DNA from: Eledone cirrhosa
Lineage: Eukaryota
Reading direction: 5' to 3'
Length of the DNA stretch: 64,000 nucleotides
Assembly: GCA_964016885.1 (NCBI GenBank)
Contig: OZ024744.1
Coordinates: 106,330,001-106,394,000, forward strand
In this document: positions 4,123-54,765 of the stretch, piece after piece
Numbering within the stretch: the first letter of the stretch is position 1
Layout: every line of letters starts with the position of its first letter
Notes under the pieces: model-generated
What the model was told of the DNA's origin: nothing
The model's database searches: none
Seen by the model: only the letters and a program-made list of their open reading frames with translations
Made by a program: the position numbers and the translations under genes

Positions 4123-5320
4123 AGAATAGAAGCAATAACACACCCAGAGAAGCTTTGAGACTGATAAAAGAACTTTCTGGTAAGAAGAGGCAGAATGTAG
4201 TATATATCGAAAGGGAAGACTGCCTTGGGAGTTGGAGGGTGCACTTTCACAAATTCCTCTCAGTAGACAATCATTGTGGCCCAGACATAGAGATTGGCCC
4301 ATTATTTGAAATCCATCCAGAGATAAGTATCGCTAAATTCTCGGTAGAAGAAGAGAATATTGACCTAAATGGCAATGAAACCAAGCAAAGCTCCTGAGCT
4401 TGATTCTCTAACTATAGACCTATGGAAAATACCCCAAACTAACAATTTTCTTCACATTGAAACCTTTGAAAGGCACAGGCCTGAGGAATGGGGAATATCA
4501 GGAATAGTACCAATACCCTCAAAAGGTAACCTTACCATCTGCACCAAACATAGAGGCATCAGTCTTATACATTGTAGCAAAAACTTACAATAAGATGTCC
4601 CTGAATAGAATCAGACCATATATTGACCACACTCTACATGGATTTCATCTATTTCACTCTACTACCTCACACATCTTGGCTCTAAAAAAGGATTATTGAG
4701 GAGGTACAGAATCACAAGAAGGAGGCAGCACTTGTATTAATAGATTTCAAGATGGCTTTCAATCCAATCAACCAAATGAAAATGCTCAAAATTCTTCTTG
4801 TGTATGGAATACTCCACTAGATTGTGATTGAAATTAAAGTCAGGTATGAAAATACTTCAACTCCTTGTAATGGACCAATGAAGGAAACTCAGACTTATTC
4901 TCCATTGATACTGGAGTTCTCAGGGAGATCCTCTGACTCTTTTCCTCTTTGTAATTTGCCTTGATTTCGCATTGTGTAATGCCTTTGCACCATCAGACAA
5001 GATAATGCTGAAAAGTCGACAAACTACCCGACATCCGGAGGTAGTTCTACCAGAAATGCCTTATGCAGATAACATAGCTTTCCTGGAAAGTATCATCAGA
5101 GAAGCTGAGGACATATTACACAAAATGGAGGCTGCAAATTAAAATGCATGTCAATACAATGTCAAATAAATACATGTGCTGAATGATTCGGAGTTTGAGG
5201 AAGTGGATGACTTATAATACCTTGGTGGGTTTATGAACACAGAGCATGATGAGGACACAGGATAGGGAAGGCATGGGGGGGGGGGGGGGGGAGGTCTCAA
5301 CACCTTGTCAAAGATGTGAG

Positions 5321-6168
5321 TAGCTCTGATGAAGGAATCTATGAACATGAGGCTATTCAAAACAATGGTTGAGTCCATTCTTCTCTACAGATGGGAGTAG
5401 CTCTGATGAAGGAATCTATGAACATGAGGCTATTCAAAACAATGGTTGAGTCCATTCTTCTCTACAGATGGGAGTAGCTCTGATGAAGGAATCTATGAAC
5501 ATGAGGCTATTCAAAACAATGGTTGAGTCCATTCTTCTCTACAGATGGGAGTAGCTCTGATGAAGGAATCTATGAACATGAGGCTATTCAAAACAATGGT
5601 TGAGTCCATTCTTCTCTACAGATGGGAGTAGCTCTGATGAAGGAATCTATGAACATGAGGCTATTCAAAACAATGGTTGAGTCCATTCTTCTCTACAGAT
5701 GGGAGTAGCTCTGATGAAGGAATCTATGAACATGAGGCTATTCAAAACAATGGTTGAATCCATTCTTCTCTACAGATGTGAGTAGCTCTGATGAAGGAAT
5801 CTATGAACATGAGGCTATTCAAAACAATGGTTGAGTCCATTCTTCTCTACAGATGGGAGTAGCTCTGATGAAGGAATCTATGAACATGAGGCTATTCAAA
5901 ACAATGGTTGAGTCCATTCTTCTCTACAGATGGGAGTAGCTCTGATGAAGGAATCTATGAACATGAGGCTATTCAAAACAATGGTTGAGTCCATTCTCCT
6001 CTACAGATGGGAGTAGCTCTGATGAAGGAATCTATGAACATGAGGCTATTCAAAACAATGGTTGAGTCCATTCTCCTCTACAGATGGGAGTAGCTCTGAT
6101 GAAGGAATCTATGAACATGAGGCTATTCAAAACAATGGTTGAGTCCATTCTTCTCTACAGATGGGAGT
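5321..6168. repeat. 77-bp tandem repeat x11 derived from RTE ORF2 coding sequence
   Basis: tagctctgat recurs at 5321, 5398, 5475 ... 6091; the unit encodes the RTE motif MRLFKTMVESILLY and the LINE resumes after the array. Confidence 0.95.
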
Positions 6169-8343: not shown

Positions 8344-8770
8344 TTAACCCTTTAGCATTTAAACCGGCCATATCCGGCCAGAACTGTCTCACCTCTTTCT
8401 GTTCAAACTGGCTGTAACCAGCCACTCATACTGATGTTAAAATATTGTTCTTAAAATAAATAACATCAAAATCTCATAGATTCGATATTATGTGAGTTAA
8501 TAATTGTTTCTACTTTTAGGCACAAGGCCATCAATTACCCCAGTACATTACTGGTACTTTATTTTATCGACCCCGTAAGGATGAAAGGTAAAGTCAACCT
8601 CAGCGGGATTGGAACTCAGAATGGCAAGGGCCGTAACTCTATGCTGGAAAGCATAGCGTCCGACCCTCTACCGATACTGCCAATCCGATGTGAGATAATT
8701 ATGTAAGATAAACTGTTAACCATGAACATACAATAATAAATATAGAGTAATGTAAATGGTAAAGGGTTAA
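8344..8770 (+). mobile_element. piggyBac-type MITE containing a SINE family 1 insertion (~8500-8687)
   Basis: TTAA-ccctttagcattta ... taaatggtaaaggg-TTAA: TTAA target site and CCC/GGG termini typical of piggyBac. Confidence 0.8.
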
Positions 8771-8956
8771 ATCCTGTATTATTCTTGGTAATTTGTCTTT
8801 TGATATTAATCAATTTATTGTTATCTTTAATTATATTTCCTGAAGAAATACAACTCTGAGTAAAGCCCCTATAATGGATAACTTTACTGATAATATCTGT
8901 TTTTTGTCTCCACAATGGTGAAATACTCTAGCTGTGTTGAAACAACTGTAGATGTG

Positions 8957-8963
<7 letters not shown>

Positions 8964-9036
<73 letters not shown>
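8964..9036. repeat. (AAAT)n/(AAT)n microsatellite
   Basis: Direct. Confidence 0.98.
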
Positions 9037-9037
<1 letters not shown>

Positions 9038-9490
9038 TTTTCTTTATTAACCACAAGGGTTTACATAAAGTAGACATTAAGGACAGTACAGGACAATACA
9101 GGACGGTACAAATGGGCATTTCTGCATGTAAAAAAAAACAGAGGATGTAATAAAATAACAAAGAAAAATTCCCCAATAGGGGGGGGGGGGGGAGACTTCC
9201 GAGAGACATTTGTGGAGAAAGCCCATTAAAAGGCCACAGTGACCCTGACCACCAGGGCAAGTGCCCTCTCCCAGTTTTCCACCTTTAATTTACAGACACA
9301 TACTCAGAGAAGGCCCATTCATTCGAGCCATACTTGCTTCTCTCACCCATCTTTCAACAAAATGCTGGGAAGAGAGCACTTCCCTCTCTACCCTGATTTT
9401 CCTTTTCAAATGAAATTTGAAAAAGTTAATCAGGGCATCACCGAAGAGGTAAGTGCTCGTCTTCAGCCCTTTCAAACATGTCCACCATAC
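9037..9490 (-). mobile_element. 5'-truncated 3' end of a Tx1/L1-like LINE between (ATT)n tracts
   Basis: Minus-strand WWTCLKGLK...FFKFHLKRKIRVEREVLSSQHFVERWV resembles the Tx1-clade ORF2 C-terminus; 3' UTR ends aataaagaaaac(att)n. Confidence 0.6.
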
Positions 9491-9508
9491 TAATAATAAT
9501 AATAATAA

Positions 9509-9698
9509 TTGTTTCTACTTTTGGCACAAGGCCAGCAATTATCCTAGTGTATTACTGGTACTTTATTTTATCGACCCCGTAAGGATGAAAGGCAAAGTTA
9601 ACCTCGGGGGGATTAGAACTCAGAACGTAAAGGTGTCATAATTCTATGTTGCAAAGCATGGTGACAAACGCTCTACCGATACTGCCAATCCACTGCCT
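9509..9698 (-). mobile_element. SINE family 1 copy with (ATT)n tail
   Basis: Same core; tail continues into the (AAT)n tract at 9491-9508. Confidence 0.9.
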
Positions 9699-9727
9699 TT
9701 ATAATAATAATAATAATAATACTGCCC

Positions 9728-9792
<65 letters not shown>

Positions 9793-9794
<2 letters not shown>

Positions 9795-10937
9795 TGCAAC
9801 AATTGGATTATCTACATATCTAAGGGAATCACATGATTGGATGATCAAACTCGTTTTGAAACACGAAAGCATCAAAAGATCATATTCCATTACAAGAGAT
9901 GCACAAAGATACAGTAATGGACTACAAATTTCAGAAGTCCCATTTACTGCTGAAATGGAAAACACAGAAAAAGCAAAGCAGGTAAAAGTAACTGCAAAGA
10001 AAGAACTGCTACAGAAACTGGCTAAGAAATGGCAAGAAAAGCCTCTGTATGGAAAATACCCAGAGCGAGCTAACAATCCTGATGTTGACAAAACTTTAAC
10101 CCATCAGTGGTTGGCATCCTCTGGACTGAAATCAGAGACTGAAGGACTGATTATATCAGCACAAGATCAGTGTCTGCCAACAAAAAATTACCAAGCCAAC
10201 ATAATAAAAAATGGATGCAACCCATTATGCCTTGTGTGTAAAAATCAACCAGAGACCATTGATCATATAATTTCAATGTGCAGTCCTATAGCTCCAACCG
10301 AATACCTAAACAGGCATGACAGAGCTGCACAATACATACATTGGATAATGTGTAAGCATTTTGACCTGCCCCATCAAAAGAATTGATGGGAGCATCAACC
10401 ACCTCCCATACTTGAAAAAGATCACATCTCAATCTTGTGGAACTTTAGCATCCAAACAGACCGAAAAATAGATGCAAATAGACCTGATATAATATTGAAG
10501 GACTTTCAAAAGAGGGTATGCCTGCTAATTGATATGTCTGTTCCAACAGACAAGAATGTATCTATAAAAACATTTGAAAAATTGAGCAAGTATAAGGACC
10601 TGGAGATAGAAATTGGAAAAATGTGGAAATTGAGAACTAAAACAATACCAGTGGTTGTAGGCGCTCTGGGAATGATACCTAAGGGGTCTAATGACTACTT
10701 ATCGCAAATCCCAGGAAACCCGCGTATAGGAGAAATACAAAAGATAGTACTAATGGGAACTGCCCATATACTAAGGAAGATTCTGTCAATATAAGTACAT
10801 CACAAGTCTAAACACTAAAGATGCATGTGTGAATATGTATGTTCTTTCTTGAACATGGCGGACCTTGTTGTCTCTTGAGGTCACTGGTTGTGACTTGGTG
10901 ATAACTCGTATGAACATAAAGCAAGATAAATGCAACT

Positions 10938-10938
<1 letters not shown>
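9793..10938 (+). mobile_element. R4/Dong-type RLE retrotransposon family A, 5'-truncated 3' fragment in (TAA)n
   Basis: CCHC motif CLVCKNQPETIDHIISMC, RHD, RLE NRPDIILKD..LIDMSVP..EKLSKYKDL; a TGG>TGA stop at ~10384; near-identical to 16844-17985; (AAT)n on both sides. Confidence 0.93.
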
Positions 10939-10979
<41 letters not shown>

Positions 10980-10980
10980 T

Positions 10981-11398
10981 TCCTTGGTCTTATTGAATTT
11001 TGAATTATAAATGCTCTGCTACTATAACTGTTGGCTCCTGAAGAACAAAGGGTAAAAATGTACATTGAGCTTAACTTAACTTATCAATGAAAATGGTGAA
11101 CTATTACCTTATATATATAAATAATCTGTTCTTATAATACATATATATATCATGATATATATATGTATTACTATAAACCTAACTAAAATTTAAAATATAT
11201 ACACAAAGAGTCTTGCCATCCTCCTATAGTATTTAAAAACCTTATTCCTAATATTAGTCATAGGATATCTACCATATCTTCTTCTGTAGACATTTTTAAT
11301 AAAGCAGCCCCTTATGTACATTTTTACCCTTCATTCTTCAGGAGCCAACAGTTATAGTAGCAGAGCATTTATAATTCAAAATTCATTAAGACCAAGGA
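10981..11398. mobile_element. Element with 85-bp terminal inverted repeats, flanked by (AAT)n on the left and (ATT)n on the right
   Basis: 10981-11065 is the reverse complement of 11314-11398 with 3 mismatches. Confidence 0.8.
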
Positions 11399-11412
11399 TT
11401 ATTATTATTATT

Positions 11413-14400
11413 GTTCTTTGAGTCTCAGTCATTGATGTTATTTAACTGGAAAGTTTGTTGAAATGAATATCAAGCCACTACCTGCAGCCTCAGACATTCA
11501 GGACGTATCAGAGGGTTCTTGCTGTTCCCAGCAAGCATGCCTTTTGAAGTGTTCCAAAAAGCGGGGCTGGACTAATTTTCTTTAACCATCCTTGGAAACT
11601 CTTTGAGATAGTACCTAGTGCTCCTATGACAATTGGGACGACCTTGATTTCATGGCAGTTCCAAATCCTTTTTAACTCCCACTTTAAATCCTGGTATCGA
11701 CTAATTTTCTCCCTCTCCTTTTCTTGCACTCTCGTGTCAAATGGGCAGGCTACATCTACAATCAGGCACAATCTTTTTTCCTTGTCCAAAACCACCAGGT
11801 CAGGCCTATTGTGTTCCAGTTTCTTGTCCGTCTGTATCCTAAAATCCCATAACACCTTCACCTGATCGTTTTCTATCACTGACTCTGGCTTATGTTCATT
11901 TCACTTCTCAGAATGTGGTAAATTGTTTACTTTGCATAGGTGCCAGTGGATCACCCTGCCCATCACATCATGTCTCCAGCCCTTATAGTGAGTCTGGGCT
12001 AGGTGTTTACACTTGGATACAATGTGAGCCACAGTCTCCTCTCTCTCTCCACAGATCCTGCACAGTGGGCTAGCCTCCTCCTTGTAAATATGGTGTTTCA
12101 CCCACTTCGTTCTGAGGGCCTGCTCTTGCGCAGCCATTAGCATTCCTTCTAAAGCCTTTTTAAGGCCTCCTCTTTTTAACCAGTTCCATGTCTGTGGATC
12201 TCTAAATTCAGTTTTCCTAAAGAAGGTACTATGAAGGGATTTTTCCTGAAGGCTGCTCTTCCTCATCATTGTTATTTCCTCCTTGGACATCCCCTGGTCT
12301 ATTGTCCTCTCCTTCATTACAATTCTGAACATTGGCTCCCTACTGTCAGTCACGTATTTGCGCAGGTTGTTTTTCTCCATCTGAACACAGTCCTCTATGC
12401 TGATAAGACTTCTTCCACCTTCAGATCTCTTTAAGTAGTGTCTATCAACATCACTCCTCTTGTGGAACATGTTGTAGATAGTCAATAGCTTCCTAGTCTT
12501 CCTATCCATTTCTTTTTGTTCAGCAACATTCCATTTCAGAATTCCCGCACTGTACCTAATAATAGACACAGCTCAGGAATTCACTGCACTTATGACATTC
12601 CTACTATTTAGATTTGATTTTAATACGCTCCTTACTCTCCTAACGTACTCAGATCTTATCAATTCCTTCATTTTTTTTGTTCTTGATGTCATCTGCCTCC
12701 AGAACACCTAAATATTTGTATCCTTCTTCAGTGTCAATTTCCTTTATCATCTCACCTGTTGGTACCTGGATTCCATTGCTTCTTGCTCAATTTACCCCCT
12801 CTTCATCACAAGGACTCCACACTTACTAATACCAAATTGCATACATATATCATTGCTGAAAATATGGACAGTGTCAACAAGCACATCCAACTCCTTCTCA
12901 CGCTTCCCAAAGAGTTTATGATCGTCCATGAAGAGGAGGTGGTTGATGGTAAGTTCTCCCTTTCACAACTTGTATCCTGCTCTCACTTTTCACAGTATAA
13001 TGGTCAGGGGTGTCAGGGCAAGGACAAACAACAGAGAGGACAGACTATCTCCCTGGAAGATACCTCTCTTGACCTTCATGCCTCCCAAGGATTCTCCAGC
13101 TGATGTTAACTCTGTTTTCCAGGACTTCATACTTTTGCTCAACAACTGTCTGATGTTATCTGCCACCTTGAAGATCTCTAGGCTTTTGATTATCCAAGAA
13201 TGAGGTACCATGTCGAATGCCTTTTTGTAATCTATCCATCCCATGGCAAGACCAGTGTGTCTCCTCTTGCAATTCCTCATTACCATCTTATCAATAAGCA
13301 ACTGGTCCTTTGTACCACGAGACTTCTTTCGGCATCCTTTCTGTTCGTCCGGTAACAAGTTGTTTATGTGGTGGTGTTGGTAGATTTCCTCAGACACAAT
13401 GCTTATTAACAGTTTCCACATTACGGACAGACATGTGATAGGTCTATAGTTGGTAACATCATTACCCTTGATTTGGTCTTTCATTACCAGAACTGTTGTA
13501 CTTTTTGTCAACCACTCTGGTACCTCACCCGACATCAAGCAGTCATTGAGCATGGTTGTCAGTTTTGGGTAGAGGGATGTTATATTTTTAATCCAATACC
13601 CCTGCACACCATCTGGGCCTGGTGATTTCCACTTGGTTAGTTTTCTGGCCTGCCCTTTAAGAGTTTCAACTGTGATACTCAAATCAGTTTGTTGGTGTGC
13701 TTGTTCACTAATCTCCCTTTGTACTGTCTCAATCCACACTGCCTGATCATTATGTTCAACATCCTGCTCCCATATTCCTCTCCAGAATGTCTTAGTCTGT
13801 TCCATCTCAGGGATCAAGTCGTTGCCTCTTTCTTTCCCTTCAAGCTGTCCAAACAACATCTTCTGGTTGTTGTCAAACATGCGGTTCTGTCTATACTGAC
13901 TAACTCTGTTCTTATACCGCCTAATCTTTGCACTCTTTGCTACAATGTGTTGCTTCAGTTCCTTTATGATAATATTTAGCTTTTTCCCCTAGTTTTGTAC
14001 TTTATTTCCAATCTATCTTTAGTGTCTATGTTTTGTAGTGTCCCATTCAGTAGGGACTCAAGCTTTCCAATGTCATATCTCATTTCCTTGATTTGACCAT
14101 TCAGTCGTTTCTTCCACCAAGGTTCTGATCTTTCTTGTTTATTGTTTCCTCTCGTTTTTATGCCAAGTAATTTCCTCACCGCATTTACTGTTCCTTTAAG
14201 GATATTGTTGCACTGGTGAAGGCTCCTCGCCTCAAGGTATGGGATGACTTTGTTTACCTTAGCTGTTGTTTCTTTTAACTTTTTCCTGTCTACAAATCTT
14301 AGGTTCATAGGTTTCCCACTATCATTGTTCATTTCATCTACCACTAAGTTTAGGATATCAACCAAATCTTGTCCTAGCCCGTCAGCATTCATTTCCTCAA

Positions 14401-15045
14401 TGGCCGTATCTTTGTTCCAGATGTTATTTATTTCAGCATTCAGATCATTGTCTGCTTCAGATGCTTCCTCCGTTCTCTCAACCTCTTCACCTTCATTTCC
14501 TACTGGCTCGTTTGTCTGGCATACTCCACTCTCCATTTCTAACCTAATCTCTCTGCTCATTTCCTCCAGTTCCAGCTCGCTTATCCACCCATTAGTTCTT
14601 ATTACCCGAGCCTGCCCAGTCAATTTTTGTTCCTCTAATTTAAATAGACCAATCTCGTTCCAGATATTATGCGTCCGTTTCCTATAGCCTTTCTCCTTGG
14701 GGTTACTCTTCAGGTAACATTCCATGACAGTTCTATTCAATTCTTTCGTCCAGTTGGTTCTGGTCCCTTTCCTTCTTTTCTTCCTCCGACACCGGCAGTA
14801 TTTGGATGACAGCCAGGTCCCTGCTGCTGGGCCAGGGGGCACTTGCTGGGTGAGAATCTGTCACATGACATTCTAGTCTCCATTTCACCGTTATTCGAAC
14901 TGTTTAGGTTCGACATTTAAACACTCATATCGAGGATTGGTGAATGTATGGTTACATAACCACCGGTGATTTCATCAGCCCCAGTGATTTCATCACCCCC
15001 GGTGATTTTAGCGTGGCACCATCACGCTGTAGACGAACATAAATA
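11413..15045 (-). mobile_element. R4/Dong-type RLE retrotransposon family B, apparently full-length but frameshifted
   Basis: ORF pieces 13976-14842 (WTKELNRTVMECY..GYRKR), 12990-13880 (NYRPITCL, WIDYKKAFD, GIFQGDSLS), FMDD at ~12921-12932, 11901-12569 (CRICGEREETVAHIVSKC, RHD), 11508-11879 (NRPDLVVLD RLE); (ATT)n-like flanks. Confidence 0.93.
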
Positions 15046-15081
15046 AATAAACAAATAAATATTTTTATTATTATTGTTGTT

Positions 15082-15232
15082 ATTCCTTGAATCTCAGTCA
15101 TTGATGTTGGTTAACTGGAAAGTCCGTTGGAATGAATATCAAGCCACTACCTGCAGCCTCAGATATTCAGGACGTATCGGAGGGTTCTTGCTGTTCCAAG
15201 CAAGCATGCCTTTTGAAGCGTTCCAAAAAGCG
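15082..15232 (-). mobile_element. Very short 3'-end copy of family B (last codons plus 3' UTR)
   Basis: Near-identical to 15269-15419, separated from it by (ATT)n. Confidence 0.88.
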
Positions 15233-15268
15233 TTATTATTATTATTATTATTATTATTGTTATTGTTA

Positions 15269-16817
15269 TTCCTTGAATCTCAGTCATTGATGTTGGTTAA
15301 CTGGAAAGTCCGTTGGATTGAATATCAAGCCACTACCTGCAGCCTCAGATATTCAGGACGTATCGGAGGGTTCTTGCTGTTCCAAGCAAGCATGCCTTTT
15401 GAAGCGTTCCAAAAAGCGTGAAGGGGCCGATTTTCTTTAACCATCCCTGGAAACCTTTGGAGATAGTCCCCAGTGCGCCTATGACAATCGGGATCACTTT
15501 GACTTCATGGCAGTTCCAAATCCTTTTCACCTCCCACTTTAGGTCCTGGTATCGGTTAATTTTCTCCCTCTCCTTCTCTTGCACTCTCGTGTCGAACGGG
15601 CAGGCCACATCCACAATCAGGCACGATCTTTTTTCTTTGTCCACAACCACCAGGTCAGGTCTATTGTGTTCCAGTTTTTTGTCCGTCTGTATCCTAAAAT
15701 CCCACAGCACCTTCACCTGACTGTTCTCCATCACCGCCTCTGGCCTATGCTCATACCATTTCTCAGAATGTGGTAGATTGTTTACTTTGCACAGGTGCCA
15801 GTGGATCACCCTGCCCATCACATCGTGTCTCCAGCCCTTATAGTGGGTCTGGGCTAGGTGTTTACACTCGGACACAATGTGAGCCACAGTCTCCTCTCTC
15901 TCTCCACAGATCCTGCACAGTGGGCTAGCCTCCTCCTTGTAGATATGGTGCTTCAACCACTTCGTTTTGAGGGCCTGCTCCTGCGCAGCCATTAGCATTC
16001 CTTCTGTAGCCTTTTTGAGGTCTCCTCTTCTCAACCAGTTCCATGTCTGTGGATCTCTAAATTCAGTTTTCTCAAAGAAGGTACTATGAAGGGATTTTCC
16101 CTTAAGGCTGCTCTTCCTCCTTGATGTTATTTCCTCCTTGGATATCCCCTGGCCTACTGTCCCCTCCTTCAGTACAGCTCTGAGCATTGGCTCCTTACTA
16201 TAGGTCACGTATTTGTATAGGTTGTTTTTCTCCATCTGAACACAGTCCTCTATGCTGATAAGACCTCTTCCACCCTCAGATCTCTTTAGGTAGAGTCTAT
16301 CGACATCACTCCTCTTGTGGAACATGTTGTAGATAGTCAATAGCTTCCTAGTCTTCCTATCCATTTCTTTTTGTTCAGCAACATTCCATCTCAGAATTCC
16401 CGCACTGTACCTAATAATAGACACAGCTCGGGAATTTACTGCGCTTATGGCATTTCTGCTGTTCAGATGTGACTTCAATACGCTCCTTACTCTCCGAATG
16501 TATTCAGTTCTTAACAATTCCTTCATTTTTTTGTTCTTTATGCCATCAGCCTCCAGAACGCCCAAATACTTGTATCCTTCCTCAGAGTCAATTTCCTTTA
16601 TCATCTCACCTGTTGGTATCTGGATCCCGTTACTTCTGCTCAACCTACCCCTCTTCATCACAATGACTCCACATTTACCAATACCAAACTGCATACATAT
16701 ATCACTGCTGAAAATACGGACAGTGTCAACAAGCACATCCAACTCCTTCTCACTTTTCGTCCATGAAGAGGAGGTGATTGATGGTAAGCTCTCCCCTTCC
16801 CAACTTGTATCCTGCTC
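15269..16817 (-). mobile_element. R4/Dong-type family B variant, 5'-truncated at the RT active site
   Basis: Open frame through thumb, CCHC and RLE (ORF 15345-16850); ~17-nt deletion within the HLLFMDD motif relative to the 11413-15045 copy; (ATT)n on both sides. Confidence 0.92.
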
Positions 16818-16843
16818 TATTATTATTATTATTATTATTATTA

Positions 16844-19800
16844 TTTGCATTTATCTTGCTTTATGTTTATACGAGTTATCACCAAGTCACAACCAGTGAC
16901 CTCAAGAGACAACAAGGTCCGCCATGTTCAAGAAAGAACACACATATTCACACATGCATCCTTAGTGTTTAGACTTGTGATGTACTTATATTGACAGGAT
17001 CTTCCTTAGTATATGGGCAGTTCCCATTAGTACTATCTTTTGTATTTCTCCTATACGCGGGTTTCCTGGGATTTGCGATAAGTAGTCGTTAGACCCCTTA
17101 GGTATCATTCCCAGAGCGCCTACAACCACTGGTATTGTTTTAGTTCTCAATTTCCACATTTTTCCAATTTCTATCTCCAGGTCCTTATACTTGCTCAATT
17201 TTTCAAATGTTTTTATAGATACATTCTTGTCTATTGGAACAGACATATCAATTAGCAGGCATACCCTCCTTTGAAAGTCCTTCAATATTATATCAGGTCT
17301 ATTTGCATCTATTTTTCGGTCTGTTTGGATGCTAAAGTTCCACAAGATTGAGATGTGATCTTTTTCAAGTATGGGAGGTGGTTGATGCTCCCACCAATTC
17401 TTTTGATGGGGCAGGTCAAAATGCTTGCACATTATCCAATGTATGTATTGTGCAGCTCTGTCATGCCTGTTTAGGTATTCGGTTGGAGCTATAGGACTGC
17501 ACATTGAAATTATATGGTCAATGGTCTCTGGTTGTTTTTTGCATACACGGCATAATGGGCTGCACCCATTTTTTATTATGTTGGCTTGGTAATTTTTTGT
17601 TGGCAGACACTGATCTTGTGCGGATATAATCAGTCCTTCAGTCTCCGATTTCAGTCCAGAGGATGCCAACCACTGATGGGTTAAAGTTTTGTCAACATCA
17701 GGATTGTTAGCTCGCTCTGGGTATTTTCCATACAGAGGCTTTTCTTGCCATTTCTTAGCCAGTTTCTGTAGCAGTTCTTTCTTTGCAGTTACTTTTACCT
17801 GCTTTGCTTTTTTTGTGTTTTCCATTTCAGCAGTAAATGGGGCTTCTGAAATTTGTAGTCCATTACTGTATCTTTGTGCATCTTTTGTAATGGAATATGA
17901 TCTTTTGGTGCTTTCGTGTTTCAAAACGAGTTTGATCATCCAATCATGTGATTCCCTTAGATATGTGGATAATCCAATTGTTGCAGTTTTCAACGCAATG
18001 TCTAACTGGATTAACCCACGTCCTCCTTCTTTCCTAGGGAGATATATTCTATCTATGTCTGCCTTAGGGTGATGCATTCTGTGCATGGTTAAGAATTTTC
18101 GGATTTTTGTATCGAGCCTACGGATCTCTGTGCTTGACCAGTTGATGACATTGTAACTGTAGGTTACTACTGGTATGGCAAGCGTGTTTATGGCATCGAT
18201 CCTATTCCTTGCATTCAATTCCGTTCTTAAGATTGCTCTGACTCTGCGGTAACATTCCTTCCTTATCCTTTCCCTCATTGTCGAGTGCTTGATTCCGTCT
18301 CCTTCACAAACACCTAGATATTTGTAAGTTTGTTCTTGATCAAGCTCTCTTATCACGTTCCCCCGATCAAGATTAATGTCTGAACTCTTCAGCAGCTTTC
18401 CTCTGGTGAACGTTGCTTTGGCGCATTTATCCAGTCCAAACTCCATTTTAATGTCATCACTGAACTGCTTCACAGTGGATAATAGCCCTTGCAATTGTTC
18501 ATCATTTTTTGCAAATAGTTTCAGGTCATCCATGTAGAACAGGTGATTAATGGTTTTGTCATAGACTCTATATCCATGTTTTGTTTCATTGAGCATTTTA
18601 CTTAATGGTATAAGTGCGATGCAGAATAAAAGCGGTGATAAAGAGTCACCCTGAAAAATTCCACAATTAATGTTAACTTCTCCAGCTTCCAGTGATTTTG
18701 TTTCACTATTCAAAAGGAGTGTCGTTCTCCATGTCCTCATACTGAATGACAAAAACCTCCTGATAACGGGGGATATTTTGAAAATCTCTAAACATTTTTC
18801 AATCCAACTGTGTGGCAAACTATCAAATGCTTTTTTATAATCTATCCAAGCAATCGATAGATTTTTGTGTCTATTATGACAATCTTCCAGTATCATTTTG
18901 TTAACCAGAAGCTGATCCTTACAGCCATATGAGCCTCGTTTACACCCTTTCTGCTCAATGGGAAATAGGTCATTTGTTATCAGGTGGTCATATGTGTATT
19001 CAGTTAGGACTGATGTTAAAATTTTATACATTGTGGTCAAGCAGGTTATCGGTCTGTAATTTTTGGGATTGTTTGTCTCATCATTCTTCGGTAGCAGGAA
19101 TGTAATGCCGTTAACTAGCCATGATGGTATCTTTTCTGGCTCCTTAACTATTTCATTGTAAAGTTGGGCTAACAGCTCATGAGACTCTGTGAAGGCATTT
19201 ATCCAAAAGTTTTGTATTTTGTCTTTTCCTGGGGATTTCCATTTGCTGGTTTTTCTTAGAGCCAAGCGCAGCTGTTCAACTGTTATATTTTCCCATGTTT
19301 GTTCTTCAAGGTGAGCTGTTTCTTTCATTTGTCTGTCTATCCATGGGGCATGTATGTTATGAACTTTTTCTTCGGCCCAGATCTTTTCCCAGAATTCTTG
19401 CACTTCCTCCTTGGGTGGTATTGATTTAGCAGTTATTGTTGACTTACCAATTTTTCTGTAGAAGTTTCTTTGGTTGTTTTTGAACATATTATTGTCCTTA
19501 TAGAATCTAGATCGTTTTTCAAAGCGCCTTATACGAGCAGCTTTGGCCGACACTTTTTGCTTGATTGTTTCTATCAGCATGTCTATGTCACATGTTGATC
19601 TTATACTGTACTTTTTTTTCAATTTTCTAAGTTTAGTTTGTTTAACATGTTCACCTACTTTATAGTTTGTTAAAATTTCTATGTCAGATCGGAGAAGGTT
19701 TATTTGGCGATTGATGTTATCTTGCCAAGTAGATTTCTTGTGGGAATTCCTTTGTTTTTTCATCTTCACTCCACATAAGTGAGTGGTGACTTTAGCCGAT

Positions 19801-20178
19801 GCATAATAGAGATGATTTAAGTCAGTAATGCTTAGTTTGTTTGTGATGATAATGTTTTTGAGAATTATGTTAGTCTTGTGTATTATCTTTTGGTTCTGTT
19901 TGGAGTTCTGGATCTTAGGGAGGGTGTCTCGTTCCCCCATGTCAGATTCTTTCATTTTCATCCATTCGATCATAATTTCATCCTTCAAGTTGGCAAGTTC
20001 ATTTTCATTCATTTCTTTATCATTTACGATCTCATTATTTTCATTTGGAGTTTCATCCTGAGCATGCACTCCCTCCACTTTTTCGCTCCTTTCTTTAATT
20101 TGTTCTATTGCCAGTGATTCCGCCCCAACTCTGGGATTCGAAGTGTTACAGTTTACCTCGTTTTCACTGACACATGCT

Positions 20179-20180
<2 letters not shown>
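16844..20180 (-). mobile_element. R4/Dong-type family A, long copy with intact ORF, in (TAA)n
   Basis: (ATT)n at 16818-16843 and 20181-20237; 3' UTR ends ...gcaagataaatgca as in the 9793-10938 copy. Confidence 0.95.
16986..20180 (-). CDS. RT / CCHC zinc knuckle / restriction-like endonuclease polyprotein (~1060 codons, no stops; N-terminus probably truncated)
   Basis: KSPGKD, NYRPITCL, QKGC, GCKDQLL, WIDYKKAFDS, GIFQGDSLSPLLF, HLFYMDDLKL, YKYLG, CRVCKKQPETIDHIISMC, RHD, NRPDIILKD...IDMSVP...EKLSKYKDL; the first ~30 aa of the listed 1094-aa ORF come from the SINE and microsatellite. Confidence 0.93.
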
Positions 20181-20237
<57 letters not shown>

Positions 20238-20238
<1 letters not shown>

Positions 20239-20396
20239 GGTAGAGGATCGGACACCACGCTTTGCAGCATAGAGTTACGGCCCTTTACGGTCTGAATTCA
20301 AATCCCGCCGAGGTTAACTTTGCCTTTCATCCTTACGGGGTCGATAAAATAAAGTACCAGTAATGTACTGGGGTAATTGCTGGCCTTGTGCCAAAA
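20238..20396 (+). mobile_element. SINE family 1 copy lacking its first ~18 nt
   Basis: cggtagaggatcggacacc...gcctttcatccttacggggtcgataaaataaagtaccag. Confidence 0.88.
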
Positions 20397-20479
20397 TGCC
20401 CTTAATAACAGGCCCTTAAAAATAGCGGTTTCAACAAACAAATCAAATATATACCTACTCCTCCTACTACCACTAAACA

Positions 20480-21135
20480 CAATAATAGGAAAAGAAAAAT
20501 TATATGGTTTACTCCACCTTTCTCTTTAACAGTTAAAACTAATGTAGACAGAAAATTCCTTGAAACTTTTAGACAAACATTTCCCCCAACAACATAGATA
20601 TAATAAGATATTTGATAGAAATTTAATAAAAATTTGCTACTCTTGCTGCCCATCCATGAAATCTAAAATTACCAACATGAATATCACTAAAGGAAATCCA
20701 GGATGTAGTTGAAGAAAAGCTGAAGAATGCTCTTTACGGAGCAAATATAATACGAAATCGATCGTATACGAAGTTAAAGTAACACCTATTAACAATAACC
20801 AACCAGCCATGAGTGAGCGATATGTGGATATGACGCGAGATAGATTCAAACTCAGATACTACGCACGTCGCTTCCTTCAGACACCCAGATAAAAGGAAAA
20901 CTACGGTGCTGGCAAATACAGTGTGGTAGTTAAAAGAACGTAGGATTCCATATTTGATTGATTGGTCTATTTTAGATTATTCAAAAGAATACCAGAAAGG
21001 CACAAAAATATGTTCTTTGTGCATAACCGAAAAATACAGAATCCTGCAAAATATGAAATCTCCTAATACAATTCTAAAACTGAGATCTTCAGAAGTTGTC
21101 CACACATGAAATCACATCTTCTTTCCAGCTGGTAT
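20480..21135 (+). pseudogene. Penelope-like element remnant (C-terminal linker and GIY-YIG endonuclease)
   Basis: RKIIWFTPPFS..VKTNV, DKHFP, GCS*RK..C, SIVYEVKVT, YVDMT, FKLRYY, CSLCITEKY, CPH; frameshifted. Confidence 0.8.
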
Positions 21136-21726
21136 AATATACCTTTAGACACTCAACCACCCTGAACTTCCTCCTATTACGAATTAACTCTTTCACTCAC
21201 TACCCTGATCTCTTTATGAACACATACATTTAACTACAACCAATACACACAATAAACACCCACTTTTTCATTATAATTATATCCCCTTTGTCATACCTTT
21301 AACACACACACACCGACGACTTTCATTCTTTCCCCCTTCATAACGTATTAGAGACTTTGATCACTTCTTCCTTCTTAACCTTTAACCATACCTTTATCTA
21401 CAACCACAAATCACAAAAATACTCTCATATTCACTCTAATCACACATCCTTTGTCATACCCTTAACACACGATCACACTGACTACCCTCATTCCATCCAC
21501 CTCTAATACTCAATCAAAGTCTTTAAAAACTGTTGCTTTCTACCTAATTGTTATGCTCTTTCTACATACACCGTTATATTTCATTATTGTAATAACGGGA
21601 ACCCCAATTCTATCTTTCACATACTATATTCATAGATATATATATGAATATATGCCCGTTTATGTATGTATGTATGTGTTTATGTATGTTTATGTGTGTG
21701 TATTCTTGTATTAATATGTGTATATT

Positions 21727-29458: not shown

Positions 29459-31705
29459 AGTCCTTGGGTGTCTTTTTGTTTGGGGTCATTGGGTTTAAAA
29501 CCCCCACTTGGTCCTTGGGTGTCTTTTTGTTTGGGGTCATTGGGTTTAAACCCCCACTTGGTCCTTGGGTGTCTTTTGTCTTGGGTCATTGGGTTTAAAA
29601 CCCCCACTTGGTCTTTGGGTGTCTTTTGTTTGGGGTCATTGAGTTTAAAAACCCCACTTGGTCCTTGGGTGTCTTTTGTCTTGGGTCATTGGGTTTAAAA
29701 GCCCCACTTGGTCTTTGGGTGTCTTTTTGTTTGAGGTCATTGGATTTAAAACCCCCACTTGGTCCTTGGGTGTCTTTTGTCTTAGATCATTGGGTTTAAA
29801 ACCCCCACTTGGTCTTTGGGTGTCTTTTTGTTTGGGGTCATTGGGTTTAAAACCCCCACTTGGTCTTTGGGTGTCTTTTTGTTTGGGGTCATTGGGTTTA
29901 AAACCCCCACTTGGTCTTTGGGTGTCTTTTGTCTTGGGTCATTGGGTTTAAAACCCCCACTTGGTCTTTGGGTGTCTTTTGTTTGGGGTCATTGGATTTA
30001 AAACCCCCACTTGGTCCTTGGGTGTCTTTTGTCTTAGGTCATTGGGTTTAAAACCCCCACTTGGTCTTTGGGTGTCTTTTTGTTTGGGGTCATTGGGTTT
30101 AAAACACCCACTTGGTCTTTGGGTGTCTTTTTGTTTGGGGTCATTGGGTTTAAAACCCCCACTTGGTCCTTGGGTGTCTTTTGTCTTGGGTCATTGGGTT
30201 TAAAACCCCCACTTGGTCTTTGGGTGTATTTTTGTTTGGGGTCATTGGGTTTAAAACCCCCACTTGGTCCTTGGGTGTCTTTTGTCTTGGGTCATTGGGT
30301 TTAAAACCCCTACTTGGTCTTTGGGTGTCTTTTTGTTTGGGGTCATTGGATTTAAAACCCCCACTTGGTCTTTGGGTGTCTTTTTGTTTGGGGGTCATTG
30401 GATTTAAAACACCCACTTGGTCTTTGGGTGTCTTTTGTCTTAGGTCATTGGGTTTAAAACCCCCACTTGATCTTTGGGTGTCTTTTTGTTTGGGGTCATT
30501 GGGTTTAAAACCCCCCACTTGGTCTTTGGGTGTCTTTTTGTTTGGGGTCATTGGGTTTAAAACCCCCACTTGGTCTTTGGGTGTCTTTTGTCTTGGGTCA
30601 TTGGGTTTAAAACCCCCACTTGGTCTTTGGGTGTCTTTTTGTTTGGGGTCATTGGGTTTAAAACCCCCACTTGGTCTTTGGGTGTCTTTTTTTTGGGGGT
30701 CATTGGGTTTAAAACCCCCACTTGGTCTTTGGGTGTATTTTTGTTTGGGGTCATTGGGTTTAATACCCCCACTTGGTCCTTGGGTGTCTTTTGTCTTGGG
30801 TCATTGGGTTTAAAACCCCCACTTGGTCTTTGGGTGTCTTTTGTCTTGGGTCATTGGGTTTAAAAGCCCCACTTGGTCTTTGGGTGTCTTTTTGTTTGAG
30901 GTCATTGGATTTAAAACCCCCACTTGGTCCTTGTGTGTCTTTTGTCTTAGGTCATTGGGTTTAAAACCCCCCACTTGGTCTTTGGGTGTCTTTTTGTCTT
31001 AGGTCATTGGGTTTAAAACCCCCACTTGGTCTTTGGGTGTCTTTTGTCTTGGATCATTGGGTTTAAAACCTCCACTTGGTCTTTGGGTGTCTTTTGTCTT
31101 GGGTCATTGGGTTTAAAACCCCCACTTGGTCTTTGGGTGTCTTTTTGTTTGGGGGTCATTGGATTTAAAACACCCACTTGGTCTTTGGGTGTCTTTTGTC
31201 TTAGGTCATTGGGTTTAAAACCCCCACTTGATCTTTGGGTGTCTTTTTGTTTGGGGTCATTGGGTTTAAAACCCCCCCACTTGGTCTTTGGGTGTCTTTT
31301 TGTTTGGGGTCATTGGGTTTAAAACCCCCACTTGGTCTTTGGGTGTCTTTTGTCTTGGGTCATTGGGTTTAAAACCCCCACTTGGTCTTTGGGTGTCTTT
31401 TTGTTTGGGGTCATTGGATTTAAAACCCCCACTTGGGCCTTGGGTGTCTTTTGTCTTAGGTCATTGGGTTTAAAACCCCCACTTGGTCTTTGGGTGTCTT
31501 TTTGTTTGGGGTCATTGGGCTTAAAACCCCCACTTGGTCTTTGGGAGTCTTTTTGTTTGGGGTCATTGGATTTAAAACCCCCACTTGGTTTTGGGTGGCT
31601 TTTGTCTTGGGTCATTGGGTTTAAAACCCCCACTTGGTCTTTGGGTGTCTTTTTGTTTGGGGTCATTGGGTTTAAAACCCCCACTTGGGCCTTAGGTGTC
31701 TTTTG
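29459..31705. repeat. 50-51-bp minisatellite, roughly 44 copies
   Basis: gtctttgggtgtctttttgtttggggtcattgggtttaaaacccccacttg, with two alternating length variants. Confidence 0.97.
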
Positions 31706-31890: not shown

Positions 31891-33423
31891 AATGATCAGA
31901 AAAACACAAAAATATACAAAATATAAATACGTGTTTATAGAAAGGAACAGGCATATCATGTTTTTTAAACAATGTCATGGATTGGCACCACAAGTCTTTT
32001 AAAACAGTGTCATGTCATGGATTGGCACCACAAGTTTTTTATGTCATGGATTGGCAACCACAAGTTTTTTATGTCATGGATTGGCAACCACAAGTTTTTT
32101 ATGTCATGGATTGGCAACCACAAGTCTTTTATGTCATAGATTGGCACCACAACTTTTTTATGTCATGGATTGGCACCACAACTTTTTTATGTCATGGATT
32201 GGTACCACAAGTATTTTAAAACAGTGTCATGTCATTGATTTGCCACAACAAGTTTTTTAAAATAGTATCATGTCATGGATTGGCACCACAAGTCTTTTAA
32301 ATATGGATTGGCCCGCACAAGTTTTTTAAACAATGTCATGGATTGGCCCGTGCAAGTTTTTTAAACAATGTCATGGATTGGCACCACAAGTTTTTTAAAC
32401 AATGTCATGGATTGGCACCACAAGTTTTTTAAACAATGTCATGGATTGGCACCACAAATTTTTAAAACAATGTCATGGATTGGCACCACAAGTTTTTTAA
32501 ACAATGTCATGGATTGGCTCCACAAGTTTTTTAAACAATGTCATGGATTGGCACCACAAGTTTTTTAAACAATGTCATGGATTGGCTCCACATGTTTTTT
32601 AAACAATGTCATGGATTGGCACCACAAGTTTTTTAAACAATGTCATGGATTGGCTCCACAAGTTTTTTAAACAATGTCATGGATTGGCACCACAAGTTTT
32701 TTAAACAATGTCATGGATTGGCACCACAAGTTTTTTAAACAATGTCATGGATTGGCTCCACAAGTTTTTAAAACAATGTCATGGATTGGCACCACAAGTT
32801 TTTAAAACAATGTCATGGATTGGCACCACAAGTTTTTTAAACAATGTCATGGATTGGCACCACAAGTTTTTTAAACAATGTCATGGATTGGCTCCACAAG
32901 TTTTTAAAACAATGTCATGGATTGGCACCACAAGTTTTTAAAACAATGTCATGGATTGGCACCACAAGTTTTTTAAACAATGTCATGGATTGGCACCACA
33001 AGTTTTTAAAACAATGTCATGGATTGGCTCCACAAGTTTTTAAAACAATGTCATGGATTGGCACCACAAGTTTTTAAAACAATGTCATGGATTGGCACCA
33101 CAAGTTTTTAAAACAATGTCATGGATTGGCACCACAAGTTTTTAAAACAATGTCATGGATTGGCACCACAAGTTTTTAAAACAATGTCATGGATTGGCAC
33201 CACAAGTTTTTTAAACAATGTCATGGATTGGCACCACAAGTTTTTAAAACAATGTCATGGGTTGGCACCACAAGTTTTTTAAACAATGTCATGGATTGGC
33301 ACCACAAGTTTTTTAAAACAGTATATCTAGATACATTGTTTGAAAAATTTGTGGTGTCAATCCATGACATGCCTGTTCCTTTCTATAACACATGTATTTA
33401 TTTTTTGTGTTTTTCTGATCATT
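31891..33423. mobile_element. Foldback (hairpin) element whose left arm contains a 34-bp minisatellite (~31972-33320)
   Basis: aatgatcagaaaaacacaaaaa..tatagaaaggaacaggcat (31891-31955) is inverted at ~33368-33423; a single inverted copy of the 34-bp unit lies at ~33334-33370; palindromic centre tatctagata. Confidence 0.85.
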
Positions 33424-47792: not shown

Positions 47793-50700
47793 ACAAACAG
47801 TGCTCTGTCCACTCTATAAGGTGGTCATGTTGGTGACAACAAAAAGTGCCCTGTCCACTCTATAAGGTGGTCATGTTGGTGACAACAAAAAGTGCTCTGT
47901 CCACTCTATAAGGTGGTCATGTTGGTGATACAACAAAAAGTGCCCTGTCCACTCTATAAGGTGGTCATGCTGGTGACACAACAAACAGTGCCCTGTCCAC
48001 TCTATAAGGTGGTCATGTTGGTGACACAACAAACAGTGCCCTGCCCACTCTATAAGGTGGTCATGTTGGTGACAACAAAAAGTGCCCTGTCCACTCTATA
48101 AGGTGGTCATGTTGGTGACAACAAACAGTGCTCTGTCCACTCTATAAGGTGGTCATGTTGGTGATACAACAAAAAGTGCCCTGTCCACTCTATAAGGTGG
48201 TCATGCTGGTGACACAACAAACAGTGCCCTGTCCACTCTATAAGGTGGTCATGCTGGTGACACAACAAAAAGTGCTCTGTCCACTCTATAAGGTGGTCAT
48301 GCTGGTGACACAACAAACAGTGCCCTGCCCACTCTATAAGGTGGTCATGCTGGTGACACAACAAAAAGTGCTCTGTCCACTCTATAAGGTGGTCATGCTG
48401 GTGACACAACAAACAGTGCCCTGCCCACTCTATAAGGTGGTCATGCTGGTGACACAACAAACAGTGCCCTGCCCACTCTATAAGGTGGTCATGCTGGTGA
48501 CACAACAAACAGTGCCCTGTCCACTCTATAAGGTGGTCATGCTGGTGACACAACAAAAAGTGCTCTGTCCACTCTATAAGGTGGTCATGTTGGTGACACA
48601 ACAAACAGTGCCCTGCCCACTCTATAAGGTGGTCATGTTGGTGACACACAAACAGTGCTCTGTCCACTCTATAAGGTGGTCATGTTGGTGACACACAAAC
48701 AGTGCTCTGTCCACTCTATAAGGTGGTCATGTTGGTGACACAACAAAAAGTGCTCTGTCCACTCTATAAGGTGGTCATGCTGGTGACACAACAAACAGTG
48801 CCCTGCCCACTCTATAAGGTGGTCATGTTGGTGACACACAAACAGTGCTCTGTCCACTCTATAAGGTGGTCATGCTGGTGACACACAAACAGTGCTCTGT
48901 CCACTCTATAAGGTGGTCATGTTGGTGACACACAAACAGTGCTCTGTCCACTCTATAGGGTGGTCATGCTGGTGACACACAAACAGTGCTCTGTCCACTC
49001 TATAAGATGGTCATGTTGGTGACACACAAACAGTGCTCTGTCCACTCTATAAGGTGGTCATGCTGGTGACACAACAAACAGTGCTCTGTCCACTCTATAA
49101 GGTGGTCATGCTGGTGACACAACAAACAGTGCTCTGTCCACTCTATAAGGTGGTCATGCTGGTGACACAACAAACAGTGCCCTGCCCACTCTATAAGGTG
49201 GTAATGTGGGTGACACAACAAACAGTGCTCTGTCCACTCTATAAGGTGGTCATGTTGGTGATACACAAACAGTGCTCTGTCCACTCTATAAGGTGGTCAT
49301 GCTGGTGACACACAAACAGTGCTCTGTCCACTCTATAAGGTGGTCATGTTGGTGACACAACAAACAGTGCTCTGTCCACTCTATAAGGTGGTCATGTTGG
49401 TGATACAACAAAAAGTGCCCTGTCCACTCTATAAGATGGTCATGTGGGTGACACACAAACAGTGCCCTGCCCACTCTATAAGGTGGTCATGTTGGTGACA
49501 CAACAAACAGTGCCCTGTCCACTCTATAAGGTGGTCATGTGGGTGACACAACAAACAGTGCTCTGCCCACTCTATAAGATGGTCATGTTGGTGACACACA
49601 AACAGTGCTCTGTCCACTCTATAAGGTGGTCATGTTGGTGACACAACAAACAGTGCCCTGTCCACTCTATAAGGTGGTCATGTGGGTGACACACAAACAG
49701 TGCTCTGTCCACTCTATAAGATGGTCATGTTGGTGATACAACAAAAAGTGCCCTGTCCACTCTATAAGGTGGTCATGTGGGTGACACACAAACAGTGCTC
49801 TGTCCATTCTATAAGGTGGTCATGTTGGTGACACAACAAACAGTGCTCTGTCCACTCTATAAGGTGGTCATGCTGGTGACAACAAACAGTGCCCTGCCCA
49901 CTCTATAAGGTGGTCATGTTGGTGACACACAAACAGTGCCCTGCCCACTCTATAAGGTGGTCATGTTGGTGACACACAAACAGTGCCCTGTCCACTCTAT
50001 AAGGTGGTCATGTTGGTGACACACAAACAGTGCTCTGTCCACTCTATAAGATGGTCATGTTGGTGACACAACAAAAAGTGCCCTGTCCACTCTATAAGAT
50101 GGTCATGTGGGTGACACACAAACAGTGCTCTGTCCACTCTATAAGGTGGTCATGTTGGTGACACACAAACAGTGCCCTGCCCACTCTATAAGGTGGTCAT
50201 GTTGGTGACACAACAAAAAGTGCCCTGTCCACTCTATAAGATGGTCATGTGGGTGACACACAAACAGTGCTCTGTCCACTCTATAAGGTGGTCATGTGGG
50301 TGACACACAAACAGTGCTCTGTCCACTCTATAAGGTGGTCATGTGGGTGACACACAAACAGTGCCCTGTCCACTCTATAAGGTGGTCATGCTGGTGACAC
50401 ACAAACAGTGCTCTGTCCACTCTATAAGATGGTCATGTTGGTGACACACAAACAGTGCCCTGTCCACTCTATAAGGTGGTCATGTTGGTGACACACAAAC
50501 AGTGCCCTGTCCACTCTATAAGGTGGTCATGCTGGTGACACACAAACAGTGCTCTGTCCACTCTATAAGATGGTCATGTTGGTGACACACAAACAGTGCT
50601 CTGCCCACTCTATAAGATGGTCATGTTGGTGACACAACAAACAGTGCCCTGCCCACTCTATAAGATGGTCATGTGGGTGACACAACAAAAAGTGCCCTGC

Positions 50701-53700: not shown

Positions 53701-54765
53701 GGTGGTCATGTTGGTGACACACAAACAGTGCCCTGCCCACTCTATAAGATGGTCATGTTGGTGACACACAAACAGTGCTCTGCCCACTCTATAAGGTGGT
53801 CATGTTGGTGACACAACAAACAGTGCTCTGTCCACTCTATAAGGTGGTCATGTTGGTGACACACAAACAGTGCTCTGTCCACTCTATAAGGTGGTCATGT
53901 TGGTGACACACAAACAGTGCCCTGCCCACTCTATAAGATGGTCATGTTGGTGACACACAAACAGTGCTCTGCCCACTCTATAAGGTGGTCATGTTGGTGA
54001 CACAACAAACAGTGCTCTGTCCACTCTATAAGGTGGTCATGTTGGTGACACACAAACAGTGCTCTGTCCACTCTATAAGGTGGTCATGTTGGTGACACAC
54101 AAACAGTGCCCTGCCCACTCTATAAGATGGTCATGTTGGTGACACACAAACAGTGCTCTGCCCACTCTATAAGGTGGTCATGTTGGTGACACAACAAACA
54201 GTGCTCTGTCCACTCTATAAGGTGGTCATGCTGGTGACACACAAACAGTGCCCTGTCCACTCTATAAGATGGTCATGCTGGTGACACAACAAAAAGTGCC
54301 CTGTCCACTCTATAAGATGGTCATGTTGGTGACACACAAACAGTGCTCTGTCCACTCTATAAGGTGGTCATGTGGGTGACACACAAACAGTGCCCTGTCC
54401 ACTCTATAAGGTGGTCATGCTGGTGACACAACAAACAGTGCTCTGTCCACTCTATAAGGTGGTCATGTTGGTGACACAACAAACAGTGCCCTGTCTACTC
54501 TATAAGGTGGTCATGTGGGTGACACAACAAAAAGTGCCCTGCCCACTCTATAAGGTGGTCATGCTGGTGACACAACAAACAGTGCTCTGTCCACTCTATA
54601 AGGTGGTCATGTTGGTGACACAACAAAAAGTGTCCTGTCCACTCTATAAGGTGGTCATGTGGGTGACACAACAAAAAGTGTCCTGTCCACTCTATAAGGT
54701 GGTCATGTTGGTGACACAACAAAAAGTGTCCTGTCCACTCTATAATGCTAGTGACACAACAAAAA
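47793..54765. repeat. ~7-kb minisatellite, 46-48-bp unit, roughly 150 copies, inside an old RTE 3' UTR (47420-54995)
   Basis: gtccactctataaggtggtcatgttggtgacacaacaaacagtgccct; the left flank matches the RTE ORF end and the right flank the RTE tail (cagctgtagaaac...gatgatgatg). Confidence 0.97.

Follow-up and report, generated by a model that had tools for sequence, protein, structure and literature searches.

Architecture of the locus

We analysed a 64,000-nucleotide stretch of Eledone cirrhosa DNA (hereafter the window; contig OZ024744.1, positions 106330001–106394000) and ran all genome searches on the 3.0-Gb, 1796-contig assembly to which it belongs. The window contains an inverted repeat whose arms, with the microsatellite included, occupy 10961–11065 and 11314–11418 (105 nt each, 94% complementary, separated by 248 nt; repeat search of the window). 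With the microsatellite left aside, the arms span 10980–11065 and 11314–11399, and 82 of 86 aligned columns are identical, with three mismatches. Each ~85-nt arm runs outward into (TTA)n and the microsatellite flips polarity across the repeat, the plus strand reading (TAA)13.7 at 10939–10979 (TRF) versus (TTA)5 at 11399–11413 (ATTATTATTATTATT), while internally both arms stop at ATGTACAT. A preliminary description of this DNA, made from its letters, had reported the ~85-bp arms with three mismatches, their outward (TTA)n, the polarity flip and the shared internal stop, and each of these observations was reproduced by the repeat search, TRF or direct reading of the sequence. Its argument that a simple insertion into one tract cannot account for the flip is likewise upheld.

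The repeat lies within a nest of interspersed elements. In the following list, F denotes the repeat family from which the arms come, LINE-A and LINE-B denote the LINEs of the locus, and the name Penelope-like rests on the protein evidence set out below.

8767–8982, plus strand: distal part of the left F copy (F ~351 to 138; BLAST, sequence)
8971–9036, plus strand: (AAT)22, read as the left remnant of an expanded F microsatellite (TRF)
9037–9793, plus strand: unclassified TAA-flanked repeat (9037–9490), SINE (9503–9697) and (ATA)30 (9701–9793) (sequence, self-BLAST, TRF)
9795–10938, plus strand: LINE-A, 5′-truncated 1.14-kb 3′ part (self-BLAST, copy comparison)
10939–10979, plus strand: (TAA)13.7, read as the right remnant of the internal tract of F (the left cap; TRF)
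10980–11112, plus strand: proximal 133 bp of the left F copy, including the left arm (10980–11065) and reaching the sharp terminus at the TA-rich core
11113–11168, no strand: degenerate (TA)n core with a 36-nt palindrome (11135–11170; sequence, self-match)
11169–11315, plus strand: Penelope-like element, first piece, thumb-region coding, equivalent to L061 4985–5131 (BLAST)
11316–11399, plus strand: right arm, F 48–133 inverted, without the terminal 47 bp of F (BLAST, sequence)
11399–11413, plus strand: (TTA)5, the right cap (sequence)
11414–16818, minus strand: LINE-B copies, comprising B1 (reverse-transcriptase and zf-RVT fragments), two tandem 174-bp 3′ ends (15060–15419) and B2 (15253–16818)
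16818–16845, plus strand: (TAT)9 (TRF)
16846–20180, minus strand: LINE-A, long young copy (profile match, copy comparison)
20181–20237, plus strand: (ATT)19 (TRF)
20238–20396, minus strand: SINE, its truncated 5′ end adjoining the resumed Penelope-like element (self-BLAST, sequence)
20397–21708, plus strand: Penelope-like element, second piece, equivalent to L061 5125–6397 at 20399–21708 and starting with an approximate GCCCCTTA repeat

The degenerate core at 11113–11168 is presumably the tract into which both F and the Penelope-like element first inserted. The palindrome within this TA-rich core is perfect over 36 nt and reads ATACATATATATAT CATG ATATATATATGTAT. Beside it lies a 16-nt piece, AATCTGTTCTTATAAT, that recurs near TA runs in loci L044 and L052 and is perhaps the terminus of another (TA)n-associated repeat. 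Elsewhere, the window carries tandem arrays: a 77-bp unit repeated 11 times at 99% identity (5312–6168), a 51-bp unit repeated 44 times (29460–31704), a 34-bp unit repeated 40 times (31960–33317), a 48-bp unit repeated 147 times over 7 kb (47793–54745), a 74-bp unit repeated 14 times (57415–58448) and (GGTGT)x474 over 2.4 kb (61130–63490).

Repeat family F and its split left copy

F is a non-coding interspersed family of ~0.8–1 kb. A 133-bp query running from the left arm to the TA-rich core drew at least 217 candidates, of which the best 40 were scored and 29 other loci were retrieved; this and the other F candidate counts are lower bounds, with the best 40 candidates scored in each search. 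Because the arm belongs to a repeat family with this many candidates, the match between the two arms is not a matter of chance. All 29 other loci share a sharp boundary that begins TGAGGTTATAGTG, and in 25 of them a TA run lies directly upstream of this end (regular expression). About 150 bp inward sits an internal (TTA)n, a short tract mostly of 3–5 units. By eye, F sequence goes on beyond the tract in 24 of 29 copies, directly in 22 and after a SINE insertion in two, with ...TTTATTTATACATC... as the common past-tract sequence. Of the remaining five copies, two end short of the tract, and in the others the tract is occupied by a SINE, by a SINE together with LINE-B or by a palindrome.

The longest F copies have 730–815 bp in common, and a few extend ~100–150 bp more. 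A distal 316-bp probe drew at least 29 candidates at 68–78% identity, versus at least 217 for the proximal 133 bp, and the end of F away from (TA)n is ragged and varies among copies. One end fixed at (TA)n, the other ragged, and fewer copies at greater distance from the fixed end are the pattern expected of a 5′-truncating retroelement, and they suggest that F is such an element with its 3′ end at (TA)n. F is AT-rich with no evident ORF, and an Rfam search of F returned no family match and no hammerhead ribozyme, only sub-threshold microRNA models on TA/TG runs. Helitron-type ends follow the form TC...CTRR and Tc1/mariner elements typically give a TA duplication; both assignments were considered for F and rejected, as by eye the family has no pair of sharp termini and its far end is ragged.

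At eight of the 29 F loci the arm has a short inverted partner of ~27–33 bp, with tracts that face inward in all eight. These loci (L035, L043, L049, L052, L057, L074, L078 and L096) each contain a short inverted partial copy of F placed head-to-head at variable points, and some of the pairs amount to almost perfect palindromes with the internal TTA/TAA tract at their centre. The arrangement expected from the preliminary description, arms in inverted pairs with outward (TTA)n throughout the genome, occurs at none of the 29 other arm loci. The arm thus occurs unpaired, all 29 loci being without an outward partner, a situation that the preliminary description had itself named as speaking against its interpretation.

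When three long F copies were aligned to the window by BLAST, the left arm proved to belong to a whole F copy that is split in two, with F 138–351 lying at 8982–8767 and F 6–159 at 11113–10961. The 1.9 kb separating the two halves consists of (AAT)22, the unclassified repeat, a SINE, (ATA)30, the LINE-A 3′ part and (TAA)13.7, all on the plus strand. On these alignments, the left cap is the internal tract of F itself, expanded and split by TAA-specific insertions. Seven of the 29 other F copies also hold a SINE or LINE insertion inside the internal tract, which bears out the earlier proposal that the repeat supplies target sites for TAA-specific LINEs and SINEs. The unclassified ~455-bp repeat at 9037–9490 (plus strand) has (TAA)n on both sides, begins ...TTTCTTTATTAACCACAAGGGTT and is also found at L018/L035; the TAA-specific machinery probably mobilises this repeat as well.

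An interrupted Penelope-like element and the polarity of LINE insertions

The interior of the repeat at 11169–11315 matches an abundant coding repeat at 90–95% identity. The two-piece match to L061 is also given by L062 and L063, and the insertion site can be seen in 14 other copies of the element. Since the Penelope-like element is continuous across 11315 to ~20397, the intervening 11316–20396 constitutes a 9.1-kb insertion block inside a single copy, breaking it at ...GCCCCTTAT (site ...GCAGCCCCTTAT^). The far junction carries an approximate, imperfect duplication of 7–8 bp, GCCCCTTA versus GCCCTTA, which is the probable target duplication of the block; a similar motif lies in the Penelope-like element 10 bp downstream, and a small local duplication could mimic such a signature. 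Homologues of the interior piece are ~700-aa proteins with PF26215, PF28514 and sometimes a weak RVT_1, look-alike Atlas clusters contain GIY-YIG in 26–58% of members and RVT_1 in up to 92%, and YRDD-like and GIY-YIG-like motifs can be recognised in the interior element by eye. We call the repeat Penelope-like from these homologues, clusters and motifs; Pfam returned nothing on the broken ORFs of the element itself. The copy at this locus is 5′-truncated and sits beside F in the same TA-rich tract. A derivation of the arm from the 3′ end or a pseudo-LTR of this interior family was considered and rejected, as 10-kb stretches around three of its copies contain no similarity to the arm. The end of F likewise has no similarity to the 3′ region of Penelope-like elements in the one Penelope-like family examined.

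In order from the left, the block contains the right arm, (TTA)5, LINE-B1, the two tandem 174-bp LINE-B ends, LINE-B2, (TAT)9, LINE-A, (ATT)19 and the SINE, with all LINE and SINE copies on the minus strand. The right arm joins the Penelope-like element at 11315 with 1–2 nt of microhomology. The long LINE-A copy has a stop-to-stop frame at 16986–20297 of 1103 aa that matches RVT_1 at 1e-29, and its residues 297–1010 align to residues 409–1102 of the R2 protein 9nl3_A (E 1.5e-27), from the reverse transcriptase to the C-terminal region. At superfamily level only, this alignment indicates that one ORF encodes a reverse transcriptase and, behind it, a restriction-like endonuclease region. RVT_1 and zf-RVT matches occur in the LINE-B fragments, and all 39 other scored LINE-B copies have at least five (TAA) units after the 3′ end. 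A (TAA)n tract also flanks both LINE-A copies of the window.

Dong of Bombyx mori, a member of the R4 clade, is TAA-specific. LINE-A and LINE-B would fit the microsatellite-specific LINEs with a restriction-like endonuclease, the Dong-R4 class, and their placement holds at superfamily level, with R4, R2, NeSL and HERO as candidate clades. LINEs with a restriction-like endonuclease are described among elements that target microsatellites (PMC4640811), and one account of cephalopod genomes lists Dong-R4 and Penelope among the abundant repeats (PMC8967140). As with the nested microsatellite LINEs of the R4 clade, the similarity of LINE-A to R2 proteins extends from the reverse transcriptase to the C-terminal region, and (TAA)n borders both LINEs, always in the same orientation. 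Unlike free microsatellite targets, one tract at this locus lies inside F, and the other was probably made by an earlier TAA-tailed insertion.

The LINE 3′ ends all point toward the inverted repeat, from 9795–10938 on the plus strand and from 11414–16818 and 16846–20180 on the minus strand, and the heads of the outer SINEs at 8498–8686 (plus) and 20238–20396 (minus) face outward. Both patterns had been seen in the preliminary description, which took the repeat to be the symmetry centre of the locus. TAA-specific LINEs carry (TAA)n behind their own 3′ end, so that tracts of opposite polarity collect LINEs that point inward, and the locus has a LINE symmetry centre because LINE orientation follows the polarity of its two opposite tracts.

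The elements in the tracts differ in their likeness to other copies. The right LINE-A has 0–2 mismatches over 1145 bp to five copies elsewhere (99.8–100%), and a 601-bp LINE-A probe drew at least 1128 candidates, the 39 others scored all being ~100% identical; with these near-identical copies and its 1103-aa open frame, LINE-A is very young and probably still active. The LINE-B 3′ end (11414–11560, minus strand) is also young, at 98–99% identity in the 39 others scored from at least 1224 candidates. The left LINE-A (9795–10938) is ~98% identical to each of six other copies compared. The SINEs of this window resemble those of cephalopods.

Origin of the right arm

The inverted repeat is probably a single-copy composite of two inverted F fragments, the right one likely a local templated copy of the left, and not a mobile element. 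No second copy of the whole ~420-bp unit was found in the 3.0-Gb genome among the best 40 of 1821 candidates, and the other matches in this set cover the arm only (query 2–134, 2–177 or 2–226) or an interior piece only (190–336). Of 30 copies compared with the right arm, the left arm matches it most closely (82/86, next best 81/86), and two of the three arm mismatches fall at one ancestral CpG that reads TG in one arm and CA in the other. A 33-mer common to the arms has only three exact occurrences in 3.0 Gb, and a 31-mer pattern with at most one mismatch has a single genome-wide occurrence outside the two arms, at a locus on C18. These near-private shared variants lead us to infer that the right arm was copied locally from the left. 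F has at least 217 copies spread over 3 Gb and the nearest relative lies at a distance of 250 bp, which makes local copying the economical reading. The proposal rests on a few shared variants over 85 nt, and gene conversion between close inverted arms could also have made them alike.

The preliminary description had proposed instead a DNA transposon or MITE with 85-bp terminal inverted repeats that end in or seed (TTA)n, in the manner of a telomere-bearing element, or an inverted retro-product with two (TTA)n tails. The transposon would account for a genuine inverted repeat that extends into the microsatellite on both sides, for an arm that is repeated in the genome and for the inverted partners at eight of 29 F loci. 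However, those eight partners are 27–33 bp long and face inward, outward-facing pairs number 0 of 29, and the unit has no second copy among the best 40 of 1821 candidates. Its (TTA)n is internal to F, which continues past the tract in 24 of 29 loci and in the left copy, its interior is a Penelope-like fragment whose other half lies 9 kb away, and no direct target-site duplication flanks it, the flanks being (TAA)n and (TTA)n, inverted, followed by LINE 3′ ends. We therefore see only a very slim chance that the unit is a transposon. The inverted retro-product fares no better, as the best 40 candidates hold no second copy of the unit and the left F copy continues at 8767–8982. Two independent insertions of F in opposite orientations into the same (TA)n tract would agree with the landing of F at (TA)n, a palindromic target open to either orientation, and with the TA-rich core between the arms. 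Such a pair is highly improbable given that the right arm lacks the terminal 47 bp of F and sits in Penelope-like coding sequence rather than at (TA)n, that the arm variants are nearly private to the arms genome-wide, and that BLAST of long F copies found no distal F sequence after the right tract within the window.

Palindromic, repeat-rich regions are generally prone to misassembly, and the preliminary description had asked whether the repeat might be an assembly fold-back. The read check covered the inner right junction at 11315, which read-derived contigs of runs X5 (96 nt, 11268–11363) and X6 (78 nt, 11286–11363) cross without any difference; this part of the concern is answered in favour of the assembly, with the qualification that the underlying runs may come from the assembly's own sample and so may not be independent. 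Run X1, which carries another organism label, covered LINE-B only and has no coverage at the arm, so it provides no evidence either way. The arms also differ at three positions, including the opposite decay of one CpG, which a fold-back would not yield, and we give the artefact almost no credence.

A further possibility is 3′ transduction, in which transcription of a TAA-tailed SINE or LINE, lodged in an F tract at this locus or another, ran on through the tail into 85 nt of F, and the RNA was then reverse-transcribed on the minus strand at a TTATTA-like site in the Penelope-like element. The block does have an approximate target duplication and a 5′-truncated SINE at its far end, the required SINE–(TAA)n–F order and orientation is common (6–7 of 29 F copies), and a junction with only 1–2 nt of microhomology is what target-primed reverse transcription predicts. 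Against this, the right arm and its only close relative have no vehicle in common. The right SINE and the left-cluster SINE at 9519–9679 are 88% identical, no better than unrelated copies (which reach 90–95%), the left and right LINE-A copies are independent insertions, and the LINE-B next to the arm is 98–99% identical to 39 other scored copies, none of which has F behind its tail. At C18, the only other locus with the arm variants, the SINE lacks the 3′ part present here. In addition, a TTTT run lies 20 nt into the flank, and RNA polymerase III tends to terminate at runs of this kind. A transduction that started in the left cluster is not supported, and we consider transduction as a whole to be unlikely.

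Two larger duplications were also tried and rejected. The match of 9792–10964 to 17988–16818 (1173 bp, 97.8%) prompted a model of a 1.27-kb inverted duplication comprising the LINE-A 3′ part, the tract and the arm. This was ruled out because the right LINE-A passes the truncation point of the left copy, as do 39 other loci at ~100% identity, and because the left LINE-A is ~98% identical to all copies compared while the right one is 99.8–100% identical to copies elsewhere. A mirror copy of the left SINE–(TAA)n–arm was set aside given the 88% identity of the two SINEs.

Under the preferred reading of a local templated copy, a minus-strand TAA-tailed retro-insertion, probably a SINE, would first have given the Penelope-like element an internal (TTA)n tract. 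This tract may later have been nicked or broken, or the reverse transcriptase may have switched templates while the insertion was under way; either event could have allowed a (TAA)n 3′ end to pair with its inverted counterpart in the left F copy, 250–400 bp away. About 85 nt of F would have been copied from the left F copy before the copied end rejoined the Penelope-like element through 1–2 nt of microhomology, and the younger LINE-B and LINE-A copies would have landed in the right tract afterwards. Priming through the microsatellite is the step that we propose, and either DNA repair at an endonuclease nick or a template switch by reverse transcriptase may have carried it out.

Templated inverted duplications are known to arise at breaks through snap-back or synthesis-dependent repair, and also by L1 twin priming, in which another part of the same RNA is inverted and a single tail remains. 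The right arm is like such duplications in being a short inverted copy of its neighbour, with 1–2 nt of microhomology, beside a retrotransposon endonuclease site. Unlike the product of twin priming, it duplicates neighbouring genomic sequence, and its pairing would have occurred through a microsatellite. The family that supplied the arm has parallels of its own. Penelope-like elements are described as having a (TA)n bias, strong 5′ truncation and adjacent inverted 5′-truncated copies (Craig et al. 2021, PMC8557442). F resembles them in its sharp end at (TA)n (25 of 29 loci), in a copy number that drops with distance from that end (at least 217 versus at least 29 candidates) and in the short head-to-head inverted partner of eight of 29 loci, and the interior coding element also ends at TA-rich tracts. 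Unlike Penelope-like elements, F is non-coding, has an end dissimilar to that of the one family examined and has no hammerhead ribozyme that we found, a motif expected in canonical clades only, and the arms in the window are tail-to-tail, unlike typical Penelope-like head-to-head pairs. F may be a non-autonomous Penelope-type element.

Together, these data describe an ordinary nested-transposon architecture, in which target-specific transposons have gathered on a (TA)n tract, plus a single short inverted duplication, probably local. This removes the candidate for a new transposon that ends in microsatellites, and the symmetry of the locus is explained by the tract polarity rule. F emerges as an apparently undescribed non-coding family that inserts at (TA)n and provides another guild of transposons with TAA tracts. 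We can envisage a broader picture, speculative and as a whole rather unlikely, in which F is a Penelope-type non-autonomous (TA)n-targeter that brings its own (TAA)n landing pad and so couples two target-specific guilds, and in which nicks by TAA endonucleases drive microsatellite-primed copying of neighbouring sequence, making inverted duplications recurrent. The locus offers a clean example of a short inverted duplication beside a retrotransposon target tract, and any recurrence of such events would be relevant to the way in which site-specific LINEs harm and remodel the places where they insert.
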